18,290 bases of DNA from a bacterium (GTDB lineage: Bacteria > Cyanobacteriota > Vampirovibrionia > Gastranaerophilales > JBAXKC01), in the NCBI GenBank assembly GCA_037137535.1, contig JBAXKC010000045.1, positions 1 to 18,290 of the forward strand, in the 5' to 3' direction. A program made the position numbers and the translations under genes. Positions 1 to 18,290 of the stretch are shown one piece after another (positions within the stretch are counted from its first letter, which is position 1; every line of letters begins with the position of its first letter). The notes under the pieces are model-generated. The model saw only the letters and a list, made by a program, of their open reading frames with translations, was not told the origin of the DNA and ran no database searches.

Positions 1-78
1 GCGGTGATTGGTCTTTTTCACTAGTTTTACTTTTGTTAGCAAACAATCTTTTTCCGCTATTCATTACGTCTATTTATA
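1..78 (-). ncRNA. Putative bridge RNA, 5' part with target-binding loop
   Basis: Nested stems GCGG/CCGC (57-54 with 4-1) and GATTG/CAATC (48-44 with 10-6) enclose an internal loop. The loop holds TTTGCTAAC (43-35, identical to the left target flank 102-94) and AAAAAG (18-13, complement of the right flank CTTTTT). Confidence 0.7.
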
Positions 79-94
79 TATTTTATTGTACGAG
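1..94 (-). mobile_element. IS110-family left end (non-coding, bridge-RNA-bearing), truncated by the window edge
   Basis: Minus strand reads ...TTTGCTAA-CT-cg-TACAAT, with a CT core at 94-93 and a -10 hexamer at 90-85. The flanking repeat copy stops exactly at this core. It pairs logically with the right end at 18104-18124. Confidence 0.75.
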
Positions 95-236
95 TTAGCA
101 AAAACAACAACATAGCAGCTCTTAACCGCTACTGGCTTCTTTTCATACTCTTTGAGCGGTTTTGCACAAAATAATTTTTGAGAAAAGAAGCAAACCGCTT
201 ATGGGCAGTGGGCTTAGTTGAAGCTTTTGCCAAAAG
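93..236 (+). repeat. Dispersed multi-hairpin repeat, segment 1 (3' half only)
   Basis: Contains AAAAACAAC...CTTAACCGCTACTGGCTTCTTTTC...GAGAAAAGAAGCAAACCGCT, shared with the other copies. The 5' half is replaced by the IS110 end. Confidence 0.9.
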
Positions 237-2718: not shown

Positions 2719-2781
2719 TCAACCATTGTTAAAAAATACACAAAGATAAAAGTTAAAATAATTCATTAATTATTTGTTTTA

Positions 2782-3008
2782 ACAAGTAAATTATCTTCGT
2801 TGCTTTACGGTTTCGATGTCTGAAACCATCGACTAACTTTTTATTTTTTGAAAAATAAAAAGAGCCAGCAAAAACAAAAATATTGTTGGTTCTTTACCGC
2901 TACTGGCTTCTTTTTTTACTCTTTGAGCTTTTTTGCACAAAATAATTCTTGAGAAAAGAAGCAAACAGCTTGTGGATGGTGGAACCTTGGTTAAAGCCTT
3001 TGCGAAAA
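2782..3008 (+). repeat. Dispersed multi-hairpin repeat, copy 2
   Basis: GTAAATTATCTTCGTTGCT...CCATCGACTAACTTTTTATTTTTTGAAAAATAAAAAG...ACCGCTACTGGCTTC...GAGAAAAGAAGCAAAC. Confidence 0.92.
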
Positions 3009-3716: not shown

Positions 3717-4781
3717 TTAGGCCGCCAAATTAGCGTCAATAATATCGAGAGCCGATGAGATTCCCAGAGCCTCATCGGCTAATTTAAACTTTACGTCCCC
3801 CACAGAGCCGCCTGACAATTGCCCAAGTACAGTCATAAGTGAGTAAGCAAGGCATACTAAACCAACATGGTTCGTTAATTTATTCCAGCTTTGCATCATC
3901 AAATAATCCAGTCCCAGCTTTTGTTTAGCCTCTCGGTGAAATACCTCAACTTGCCATCTCTTTAAATATCCGACTTTCAATTCCTCGCTTGTAAGATTAA
4001 TATTGTTTGAGCCGATAAAATATTCCTCGTCTTGGTGGCAAAATCGAAGTATTTTAACCTCTCCTTTTATGTCATTAAGCTTACAAATTACACTTTCGTC
4101 ATAATTTAATCCTAATTTCTGCAATTGAGCATTATTTTTAGCAATTTGAACCTTTCTATTCCTTTTCAATCTTGTAAACCAAGTAAATCCTTTCCTATTT
4201 AGCCACTTTATGATTTTCTTTGAGGCAAAAAAACTATCGAACATTATTGTCTTTACAGGGATTTACATCAACAAAGACTTTTTAAGTAAATTTAAAAATA
4301 TATCAGTTTTTGTCTTGTATTCACGCTTGTTTACCAGTTTTGAGCTAACCCAAATGCTGAAATCAAGAGGAATATATATTTTCCCATTTGTCAGTCCTAA
4401 GCTAATAAGTTCATTTTGAGGCATGTTTTTCATCCCTCTTATGCTTTTCAATCCTTTTTTTGTTATTCTATTTTTCGCATATTGCTGCCTCAAAGGCGTT
4501 CCATCCACAACAAGATAGAAATTTAAGGCTGTAAAGATTGGCAATATTAGTTTTGCCAATTGATAGAACAGGTTTTTCCAGTTTATCTTTGATTCTAAGA
4601 AATCATAAAGCGGCCATTTGCTTCTTACTTTAGTATTTTTAGATATTCTATTCGTGCTAAAGCTTCTCTCTTGATAAATTAATCCTATTAAATATTTTCG
4701 GAATGAAATTTTATCGATATCATTTAAAACAAATGATAGAATGTAATTGAGAAATATATTTAGCCAAAATGATTGGCTCAT
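3717..4781 (-). pseudogene. DDE transposase (IS701-like) interrupted by one in-frame TAA at 4265-4263
   Basis: The two ORFs are in the same frame (...LM*IPVKTIMFDSFF...). Catalytic motifs VVDGT, MFDSFF and RWQVEVFHREAKQKLGL are present. Confidence 0.85.
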
Positions 4782-4900: not shown

Positions 4901-5122
4901 TAAGAACCCTCCATCAACCCCCAACACTAACGAGCGGCTGGCTTCTTTTCTTACTTTTTGAGTTGTTTTACATAAAATAATTTTTGAGAAAAGAAGCCAG
5001 TAGCGGTCAAAAACTGCCATGTTTTTGTTTTTACTCCCTTTTTATTTTTCAAAAAATAAAAAGGGAGTTGATGGATTTATACATCGAAACCGTAAAGCAA
5101 CGAAGATTATTTACAGTTAAAA
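4901..5122 (-). repeat. Dispersed multi-hairpin repeat, copy 3 (loop of last hairpin inverted)
   Basis: Reverse complement of copies 2 and 4, except 4952-4986, which is in plus orientation. Confidence 0.92.
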
Positions 5123-5147
5123 GAAAAAAATTTATGATTAAAACCCC

Positions 5148-6847: not shown

Positions 6848-7078
6848 GTCATGCTTAAATTGTTTCAGCATCACCTTAAATTATTGGATTTTTACCTCTG
6901 AAATTTGTTCGTTGCTATACGGTTTAAATATCTAAAGCCATCGACTCCCTTTTTATTTTTGAAAAATAAAAAGGGAGTAAAAACAAAAACATGGCAGTTC
7001 TTGACCGCTACTGGTTTCTTTTCTGACTCTTCGAGTTGTTTTACACATAATAATTTTCGAGAAAAGAAGCAAATCGCC
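6848..7078 (+). repeat. Dispersed multi-hairpin repeat, copy 4, preceded by a GTCATGCT..TTCAGCATC REP-like palindrome
   Basis: REP-like unit at 6848-6872 and core from ~6891, including hairpin ACTCCCTTTTTATTTT/AAAATAAAAAGGGAGT. Confidence 0.92.
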
Positions 7079-9550: not shown

Positions 9551-9810
9551 ATCATTGTGAGCGTAATGAACAATCGCCTATATTATTTGGCTTCACAAGT
9601 AAATTATCTTTATTGCTCAATGTTTTCGATATCTAAAGCCATCGCCTTCCTTTTTATTTTTGAAAAATAAAAAGGAATCAAAAACAAAAATATTGAAGTT
9701 CTTAACCGCTGTTTGCTTCTTTTCTTGCCCTTTAAGTTCTTCTTCACAAAATAATTTTAGAGAAAAGAAGCAAACAGCTTGTGTGTCGTGTGTCTTGGTT
9801 AAAGTTTCAC
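9551..9810 (+). repeat. Dispersed multi-hairpin repeat, copy 5 (full length with (G/A)TCATTG REP-like head)
   Basis: ATCATTGTGAGCGTAATGAACAATCGCC...TTCCTTTTTATTTTTGAAAAATAAAAAGGAA...GCTGTTTGCTTCTTTTCT...AGAAAAGAAGCAAACAGC. Confidence 0.92.
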
Positions 9811-9863
9811 AAGTAAATTTTTATCTAAACGTAAAAAATATAATTTGATAAGTGAGCTTGTTA

Positions 9864-12324: not shown

Positions 12325-12550
12325 GAGATTCTCAATCAATTTCAGCATGACGATTTTCGTAAAAGAAAAAACGAAAGAACCACCACTAACGAGCGGTTTG
12401 CTTCTTTTCTCGAAAATGCTATTGTGCGAAGCCACTCAAAGAGTAAGAAAAGAAGCCGATGGCTTTAGGCCTCGAAATCATTGAGCAATGAATATAATTC
12501 ACTTGTGAAGCCTCATAATATAGGCGAAGGTTCGCTACGCTTGCAATGAC
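12325..12550 (-). repeat. Dispersed multi-hairpin repeat, copy 6 (middle hairpin deleted) plus a GTCATGCTGAA REP-like unit
   Basis: On plus, AGAAAAGAAGCC joins directly to GATGGCTTTAG. Head GTCATTGCAAGCGTAGCGAA on minus from 12550, REP-like unit at 12325-12351. Confidence 0.88.
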
Positions 12551-12564
12551 AGTTTTTTCTTTTA

Positions 12565-14799: not shown

Positions 14800-14834
14800 T
14801 TATTCTAAATCAAGTTTAGACTGATATTTTATGA

Positions 14835-15086
14835 GAATTCAACTAAGAACCGCTCCAAATGAGCGGTTTGCTTCTTTTCTCAAAAATGCTTTTGTGCAAA
14901 ACGCCTCAACGAGTAAGAAAAGAATCAAGTGGCTGTTAAGAACTTCAATGTTTTGTTTTTGCTTATTTTTTATTTTTCGAAAAATAAAAAGTAAGTCGAT
15001 GGCTTCAAACATTGAAATCATTAAGCAACGAAGAAAATTTACAGGTAAAAACTCATAATCAAGGCGATTGCTACACTCGCAAAGAC
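14835..15086 (-). repeat. Dispersed multi-hairpin repeat, copy 7 (full length)
   Basis: Reverse complement of the consensus, with head GTCTTTGCGAGTGTAGCAATCGCC. Confidence 0.92.
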
Positions 15087-17942: not shown

Positions 17943-18105
17943 GTCATGCTGAAATTGTTTAAGCATCTCATAAAAACTATCATTGCGAGCATAGCGAAAC
18001 AATCCAAAGCATTTTTAGGTTTTTACATTTAGATTATCTTTGTTGCCGTATGATTTCGATGTCTAAAGTCATCGACTAACTTTTTATTTTTCGAAAAATA
18101 AAAAG
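17943..18105 (+). repeat. REP-like unit plus dispersed repeat segment 8 (5' half only)
   Basis: GTCATGCTGAAATTGTTTAAGCATC, then ATCATTGCGAGCATAGCGAAACAATC...CATCGACTAACTTTTTATTTTTCGAAAAATAAAAAG, cut at the AG core. Confidence 0.9.
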
Positions 18106-18290
18106 ATTATGTTATGGAAGTCAAATACTTTTTAGAATAATTGGAATCAAAAGGTGTTCTGTTTCTTAAAATAGCAGCGGCAGTTGCAAGCATTTTTCTC
18201 ATAACAGCGATAAGTGCTACTTTTTTAGCTTTACCTGATTCCGTAACAACTTTTGTGTAAACCTTAATTTTGAGAGATTAGAGAAATTTT
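18104..18290 (-). mobile_element. IS110-family right end, truncated by the window edge
   Basis: Minus strand ends TTGACTTCCATAACATAATCT, an outward -35 followed by a CT core, overlapping the transposase 3' end. Confidence 0.85.
18107..18277 (-). pseudogene. IS110-family transposase C-terminal fragment (not in the ORF track)
   Basis: Manual translation SLKIKVYTKVVTESGKAKKVALIAVMRKMLATAAAILRNRTPFDSNYSKKYLTSIT* matches the IS110 C-terminal GK.KKVAL.A.MRK motif. An in-frame TAA lies at 18280-18278. Confidence 0.8.

Follow-up and report, generated by a model that had tools for sequence, protein, structure and literature searches.

Both ends of an IS110-family element and a probable bridge-RNA target-binding loop at the edges of a Gastranaerophilales contig

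The DNA analysed here (the window, meaning the whole stretch of 18,290 nt) is contig JBAXKC010000045.1 of assembly GCA_037137535.1, from a bacterium of the Gastranaerophilales. The stretch begins and ends inside an IS110-family mobile element, and that element splits one copy of a dispersed intergenic repeat in the 5' arm of its middle hairpin. It is likely that an IS110-group insertion sequence (IS) with an IS621-like mechanism of movement has its left end (LE) on the minus strand at 92-1, where the first 92 nt are visible, and its right end (RE) at 18290-18106. Here, we describe the two ends, the interrupted repeat and a small RNA loop in the LE whose sequence appears to specify that repeat.

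Some features of the known elements are needed in what follows, and are taken from the portions of the published account available to us (PMC11208160). IS621 has a CT core, and a promoter is reconstituted across this core at the circle junction. It uses a nine-base left and a four-base right target guide, both of which include the core. The IS110 group in general has a long LE and a short RE, and repetitive extragenic palindromic (REP) elements are among its targets.

The two ends of the insertion sequence

The features at the two edges of the window are as follows.

1 to 92, minus strand: visible LE of the IS, which starts right after the CT core, has its -10 hexamer at +3 to +8 as in relatives, and runs off at position 1
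85 to 90, minus strand: TACAAT, the -10 hexamer of the junction promoter; joining of RE and LE brings it to 17 nt from TTGACT
93 to 94, minus strand: CT core at the junction of left target and LE
95 to 104, minus strand: left target flank (LT), TTTTTGCTAA, part of the right half of the repeat
18104 to 18105, minus strand: CT core at the junction of RE and right target
18106 to 18290, minus strand: RE of the IS, almost entirely the 3' end of the transposase gene
18119 to 18124, minus strand: TTGACT, the -35 hexamer, separated from the core by 13 nt

Read on the minus strand from position 102, the sequence is ...TTTGCTAA-CT-CG-TACAAT-..., followed by GCGG-AAAAA-GATTG-TTTGCTAAC-A-AAAGTAAAACTAGTG-AAAAAG-AC-CAATC-A-CCGC. 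At the left junction the sequence is ...GCTAA-CT-CGTACAAT, and at the right one ...CATAAT-CT-TTTTATT. CT is all that the two junctions have in common; the neighbouring bases differ, and there is no longer target duplication. When RE and LE are joined across a single CT, the order becomes TTGACT, 13 nt, CT, CG, TACAAT, which is a near-consensus promoter with a 17-nt spacer. Of 36,522 positions in the window, 3 have a promoter as good as this one, and a promoter search of the integrated LE region (1-260) found none. The LE is non-coding over at least 92 nt, except for an open 21-codon frame of doubtful meaning. The RE has one non-coding base, because the stop codon of the transposase gene (18109-18107) stands a single base before the CT at 18105-18104. 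The boundaries of the IS are fixed to the base by these junctions, and the break of the contig at these ends is explained.

The frame in the RE is open from 18277 to that stop codon on the minus strand and encodes a protein tail ending ...KVVTESGKAKKVALIAVMRKMLATAAAILRNRTPFDSNYSKKYLTSIT. A HMMER search of 1.84 billion representatives with this tail (55 aa) gave 33 matches at E <= 1e-3, the best at 3.6e-7. Ten of the 33 were scanned with Pfam: eight contain both PF01548 (DEDD_Tnp_IS110) and PF02371 (Transposase_20), one contains PF02371 alone, and one is an unrelated low-complexity protein. The tail aligns to the extreme C-terminus (the last ~45 residues) of the PF01548/PF02371 proteins with 43-48% identity. 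A Pfam scan of the tail itself gave no match; the piece lies after PF02371, the transposase domain with the conserved serine. Among plasmids, a tblastn search with the tail returned 645 records, all less than 60% identical, and most of the matches listed are annotated as IS110 family transposases. A protein word search for longer proteins containing the tail found none at E <= 0.01, and blastn of the RE against plasmids gave no match. A search of genome contigs with the tail yielded 43 loci, all of them distant (39-75% identity over short segments) and none a copy of the window's IS. An earlier reading of the sequence (the preliminary description) had proposed an IS110 recombinase system at these ends, and the alignment of the C-terminal tail (18277-18107, minus strand), the CT core and the junction promoter all bear out that proposal.

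The interrupted repeat

What does the element interrupt? The window is studded with a composite intergenic repeat of ~240 nt that contains three hairpins and recurs every ~2-3 kb in both orientations, with 60-85% identity between copies.

2763 to 3008, plus strand: internal repeat copy
4916 to 5137, minus strand: internal repeat copy
6889 to 7077, plus strand: internal repeat copy
9571 to 9812, plus strand: internal repeat copy
12354 to 12557, minus strand: internal repeat copy without the middle hairpin
14829 to 15070, minus strand: internal repeat copy
18019 to 18103, plus strand: left half of the interrupted repeat copy, with the greater part of the middle hairpin; in the orientation of the IS this is the right target flank
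95 to 211, plus strand: right half of the interrupted repeat copy

The two half-repeats adjoin the two ends of the IS, and the hairpin arms that they contribute, CTAAC...GTTAG, are mutually complementary. The rebuilt empty site folds as a 16-bp AT-rich hairpin in which, in the orientation of the IS, the CT core forms nucleotides 6-7 of the 5' arm. Elsewhere in the window, the 14-nt target has no match with one mismatch or fewer. The half-repeats fit together and the two ends of the IS point the same way, so the window may be either a circle that a single IS copy closes or a contig bounded by two like insertions.

Some further properties of the repeat can be mentioned here. The middle hairpin is a T/A-rich perfect palindrome and looks like a bidirectional terminator. 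Its stem bases vary among the repeat copies, with compensating changes in four of the six hairpin-bearing copies and partly matching arms in the other two, and only one of the five other left halves reads CTAAC. A short module like CATTGCGAGC-TAGCGAA-CAATC lies at 17980-18010 and also just upstream of the repeat copies at 9571, 12354 and 14829.

The candidate target-binding loop

The visible LE contains a nested pair of short stems that enclose sequences related to both target flanks.

54 to 57, minus strand: 5' arm of the outer stem, GCGG, which pairs with 4-1; this stem may extend past the edge of the window
48 to 53, minus strand: second AAAAAG, the less likely right target guide, in the bulge between outer and inner stems
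44 to 48, minus strand: 5' arm of the inner stem, GAUUG, which pairs with 10-6, at the same place as the 4-5 bp inner stems of relatives
34 to 43, minus strand: probable left target guide; UUUGCUAAC (43-35) is identical to the flank at 102-94
19 to 33, minus strand: apical segment of 15 nt between the guides, at most a weak imperfect hairpin; the shortest such gap in the set
13 to 18, minus strand: preferred right target guide, AAAAAG, complementary to the core plus right target (RT), CTTTTT; it stands 2 nt before the 3' arm of the inner stem, placed as in relatives
6 to 10, minus strand: 3' arm of the inner stem, CAAUC
1 to 4, minus strand: 3' arm of the outer stem, CCGC

The preliminary description had located the CT core at 94-93, TACAAT at 90-85 and two stems, GCGG/CCGC (57-54/4-1) and GATTG/CAATC (48-44/10-6), and every one of these is present. 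Its claim that TTTGCTAAC at 43-35 is identical to 102-94 likewise proved correct. In the register of IS621, that is, with the seven target bases left of the core (LT7) plus CT, the left guide becomes UUGCUAACA (42-34), which matches at 8 of 9 positions and misses only the core T.

How readily would such a match arise by chance? As pseudo-targets we used all 1,903 CT sites between positions 300 and 18000 of the window, on both strands. For none of them is the 9-mer ending at the core C present in the LE, and a match of 8 nt is reached by two. Among 20,000 dinucleotide shuffles of the LE, a left-guide match of 9 nt appears in 2 and one of 8 nt in 11. With the 9-mer held fixed, a closing stem of at least 5 bp directly before it is found in 1,168 of 20,000 shuffles, and such a stem together with AAAAG placed 2-3 nt before its 3' arm in 36 of 20,000, although this combined descriptor was picked after the relatives had been seen. 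We have good confidence in positions 43-34 as the left target guide of a bridge RNA.

The assignment of the right guide is less secure. The preliminary description had proposed AAAAAG as a guide, and this hexamer is indeed the reverse complement of CTTTTT at 18105-18100, but it occurs twice, and its match to the target is not statistically significant (see below). The copy at 18-13 is probably the right guide. The one at 53-48 is an unlikely choice because the right guide lies on the 3' side of the loop in every parsed relative. A third stretch, AAAAGT at 34-29, could pair with the same target bases.

Comparison with related elements

Of the 43 genome loci, 18 related ones were examined for a donor guide. 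In 12 of these, the seven bases before the RE core, together with CT, recur in the LE with at most one mismatch, immediately before the transposase start, and this repeated sequence is the donor guide. Parsing of the donor guide failed for L011, L018 and L024 and for the short contigs L019, L036 and L042. Ten distinct elements could be tabulated (L001, L004, L012/14/15, L016, L017, L022, L032, L034, L039/40 and the window), a small set that was parsed by hand. In seven of the ten, TTGAnn stands exactly 13 nt before the core, the distance seen in the window. The LE of all ten begins with 2 nt and then a hexamer, which is -10-like in six and poorer in L012/14/15, L017 and L022.

The loops of these elements share a common plan: an outer stem, a bulge of 0-5 nt, an inner stem of 4-5 bp, about 1 nt, a 9-nt left guide equal to LT7 plus CT, an apical hairpin, the right guide, 2-3 nt, and then the 3' arms of the inner and outer stems. 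Inner stems of the relatives include GAUC/GAUC, GACC/GGUC, GGCC/GGCC, UCUU/AAGA and CACUG/UAGUG. Laid out on this plan, the window reads GAUUG, U, UUGCUAACA, 15 nt, AAAAAG, AC, CAAUC. Its left guide lies at LE 51-59, compared with 45-119 in the seven relatives whose best 9-mer falls in the loop, and its guide-to-guide gap is 15 nt versus 17-29 nt in the six relatives with a right-guide match in the loop.

A view of guide-target covariation is given by a 10 x 10 matrix in which the LE of each element was compared with the LT7 plus CT of every element. On the diagonal, 6 of 10 cells have one mismatch or fewer; off the diagonal, 3 of 90 do. The LE of the window has one mismatch to its own target and 4-6 to the other nine. 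Covariation among homologues is thus seen in this matrix, and the suggestion of the preliminary description that a guide specifies the repeat agrees with the flanks being halves of one repeat copy cut in the middle hairpin and with the family-like placement of the left guide. The failure to match the core T also has a precedent: the left guide of L034, CCUCGUCCC (L034:249-257), fits LT7 plus the core C and not the core T, the same deviation as in the window.

The distance from the right target guide to the start of the donor guide is 31-82 nt in the relatives. The best match in the visible LE to a left-donor-like 9-mer has 3 mismatches, a value in keeping with a donor loop placed beyond the window edge. 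A blastn-short search of the LE against all related loci gave only chance matches of 10-15 nt.

Several side observations were made on the relatives. The insertion at L032, which is GC-rich (3766-3800, 3929-3955), sits in a REP-like palindrome, and the uninterrupted target, GGCCGCCC-CT-ACACCCGG, is found ~160 nt upstream of the insertion. In L011, L012, L014 and L015, the flanks are likewise copies of one hairpin-containing repeat. In three unrelated hosts (L014:4035-4103, L022:116-178 and L034:233-294) both arms of the inner stem read GAUC, which is self-complementary, and a G follows; this GAUC stem may be a conserved protein contact. For L039/L040, a boundary at the edge of the identical block was considered and dropped, the left guide and the promoter geometry making the first 12 identical bases a conserved target.

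Points against the interpretation, and alternatives

A number of results weigh against the reading of this LE as an IS621-like guide RNA, and several of them concern its fold. The predicted fold of the LE is weak (-8.0 kcal/mol, z = -1.02), with 32 of 200 shuffles folding as well, while the loops of the relatives fold at -21 to -38 kcal/mol. The minimum-energy structure has both stems, but it pairs UUUGCUA of the left guide with UAGUGAA and shows no stable apical hairpin. The left guide has an A where the core T should be matched. The right guide is of low complexity, there are three candidate stretches for it, and a 6-nt right-guide match is found for 128 of the 1,903 pseudo-targets and in 9,005 of 20,000 shuffles. 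The relatives are not uniform either: the loop does not contain the best LT-like 9-mer of L001 or of L022, and the best matches of L004 and L017 have 3 and 2 mismatches, respectively. The transposase tail frame has an in-frame TAA at 18280-18278, upstream of which a different frame (NFSNLSK...) is open to the edge of the window (18278-18290, minus strand). This stop codon points to a nonsense or frameshift change, or to a sequencing error in an A-run; given the TAA and the second open frame, the transposase gene of this copy may therefore be broken. Finally, the window does not extend to a donor-binding loop, the catalytic domains or any second copy.

A test suggested by the preliminary description, detection of the loop with a covariance model of homologous left ends, also went against it. 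The model, R1, has 67 positions and 13 pairs and was built from the loops of nine relatives, with a structure from RNAalifold plus two apical pairs. It found no match in 1-92 and four matches elsewhere, with E values of 2.3-9.9. The test is weak because the training loops are mostly GC-rich, with outer stems of 7-10 bp, whereas the loop of the window consists of 4 + 5 AU-rich pairs, lacks a real apical hairpin and has its outer stem cut by the window edge; it is a failure nonetheless. Rfam 15 gave no match anywhere in the window at the gathering threshold, and at E <= 10 only four spurious eukaryotic or viral families on positions 1-130. On the loci of six relatives it found a tRNA only. Considering that Rfam is silent on the window and, apart from that tRNA, on the six loci, it seems to hold no family for this RNA class.

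The weak fold, the miss by R1, the uninformative right-guide match and the unmatched core T would all fit a different account, in which the IS110-family ends are real, the occurrence of TTTGCTAAC at 43-35 is a chance match in AT-rich DNA, and the true target loop lies beyond position 1. It is difficult to see, on such an account, why the 9-mer at the core C should be so rare among control sites and shuffles, why 1 nt should separate it from a preceding 5-bp stem whose other arm follows AAAAAG after 2 nt, a configuration as scarce as described above, and why its distance from the start of the LE should be typical of the family. We consider a chance match unlikely. A second alternative is that 64-2 (minus strand) is the beginning of the transposase coding sequence (MNSGKRLFANKSKTSEKDQSP...), which would leave an LE of only ~28 nt and no guide RNA upstream of the gene. 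A frame started by ATG is in fact open from 64 to the window edge at 2, another point that tells against the guide-RNA reading, and in some relatives the GIDxSK motif is preceded by an N-terminal extension of 17-30 residues. By our estimate, however, 21 open codons are expected by chance fairly often, there is no purine run resembling a Shine-Dalgarno sequence before the ATG, and in L001 an in-frame open reading frame (ORF) likewise crosses the LE without being a real start. Moreover, the 12 related loci with a parsed donor guide carry it in a long non-coding LE before the start codon, and an RE with 1 non-coding nt could not house the guide RNA instead. The ATG frame through the proposed guide loop (2-64) is probably a chance frame, and a coding start here is distinctly improbable.

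Perhaps there is no insertion at all, and the window ends are unrelated or belong to an assembly chimera, with coincidental half-repeats? Only one junction of each kind is seen, and the body of the element is missing. Against this, the transposase tail, the CT at both junctions, the promoter halves that fit at 17 nt and the CTAAC/GTTAG hairpin halves all agree with one another, and we regard the absence of an insertion as very improbable indeed. The reading preferred here remains that of an IS110-group element inserted in the repeat, with a target-binding loop in its LE.

A proposed mechanism and its relation to known systems

How might this element move? By analogy with IS621, it would excise as a circle, and the joining of RE and LE across the CT would create the promoter TTGACT-17 nt-TACAAT, from which the LE would be transcribed into a bridge RNA. 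The first structured module of this RNA would be the target-binding loop, with the outer stem GCGG/CCGC, a bulge and the inner stem GAUUG/CAAUC. The target that it appears to program is TTGCTAA-CT-TTTT; this sequence is part of the 5' arm of the AT-rich middle hairpin, the place where the element is found. Judging from the relatives, a donor-binding loop should follow about 18-28 nt beyond position 1 for the donor ACATAAT-CT-CGTACAA, and it is predicted to carry a 9-mer like ACATAATCT and a stretch like GTACGAG. The DEDD/serine recombinase would then exchange strands at CT. The transcription, the RNA-DNA pairing, the donor loop and the catalysis are our inferences from the known system; for the unseen donor loop they supply an explicit prediction.

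As far as the accessible text of PMC11208160 describes it, IS621 shares with this element the CT core, the RE-LE circle-junction promoter, and a long LE with a very short RE. It also shares an LE loop in which the 5' side holds a same-sense 9-nt left guide (LT7 plus core) and the 3' side an antisense right guide (core plus RT), and the insertion of the window's element into an intergenic repeat hairpin is like that of IS621 at REP elements. On the preferred reading, the example follows the mechanism described in 2024 and does not represent a new one. The element has no detectable LE sequence similarity to IS621, and its tail is only ~40-60% identical to those of the IS621-like loci L001-L006. 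Its loop is AT-rich and far smaller; the stems measure 4 + 5 bp, and a stable apical hairpin is absent. Its transposase ORF runs to 1 nt before the core, and its left guide misses the core T, a deviation to be set beside the strong preference for pairing both core bases reported, in the same accessible text, from IS621 screens (PMC11208160, Durrant et al. 2024).

The element in OY968764.1 (L039 and L040, two identical copies at loci of ~34-35% GC) has an identical geometry of TTGACT, 13 nt, CT, 2 nt and -10. The end of its RE resembles that of the window (TTGACTT...CATAAT), its LE begins with C, and its loop follows the same plan, with an outer stem, a bulge, a 4-bp inner stem, a 9-nt left guide, an apical hairpin, the right guide and the inner stem again; its left target guide and left donor guide each match at 9 of 9 positions. 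It differs in having a tail 40% identical to that of the window, a strongly structured LE (z = -4.49), the target GCTCGTC-CT-GA, and a stop codon inside the -35 hexamer, the stop codon of the window being next to the core.

Insertion into the stem-loop of a repeat also resembles ISPpu10, an IS110 element of Pseudomonas putida. According to the sections of the preprint that could be consulted (bioRxiv 10.64898/2026.03.19.712850), all of its insertions are in a conserved intergenic repeat, with a stem-loop beside the base-paired target. The stem-loop of that account extends the target on its 5' side and is GC-rich, whereas the hairpin in the window is AT-rich and holds the core inside its 5' arm. 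The IS1111 group belongs to the same DEDD recombinase family and is likewise RNA-guided; its elements encode the RNA in a long RE and have long subterminal inverted repeats (PMC11208160, in the portions available). An organisation of this type does not fit the window and was excluded because the RE, with its single non-coding nucleotide, is too short.

The element thus differs from known ones in its compact AT-rich loop, the unpaired core T, an ORF that ends 1 nt from the core, and a sequence far from anything retrieved. No close relatives were found in the genome, plasmid and protein collections searched. It is conceivable, if doubtful, that the element represents a deep-branching, AT-adapted lineage of bridge RNAs whose minimal target loop has stems of 4 + 5 bp and an unpaired core T and lacks a stable apical hairpin. 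If a lineage of this kind is active, an apical hairpin and full pairing of the core would be dispensable, and the loop could provide a compact scaffold for AT-rich targets; only if the element is active would so small and AT-rich a loop be of interest for the engineering of bridge recombinases. More simply, the element adds one more natural example to the bridge-RNA elements, and intergenic repeat hairpins again serve as landing sites.

Remaining content of the stretch

The stretch has a GC content of ~32%. Between 5148 and 17834 it encodes TPR, HNH, Rep-like HTH_36/DnaD_N, EF-hand, CHAP-domain and PilZ proteins, a pair consisting of a methyl-accepting chemotaxis protein and CheW, and several ORFs rich in serine, asparagine and aspartate that have no family. 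The Rep-like and CheW proteins have at most 39% identity to anything in the plasmid collection. An unrelated DDE-type transposase is split into two ORFs, 3717-4244 and 4263-4781, on the minus strand; over 3717-4781 it matches DDE_Tnp_1 with an E value of 4.7e-12, and a match to DDE_5 is below the cut-off. Inverted copies of the dispersed repeat flank this split transposase on either side.

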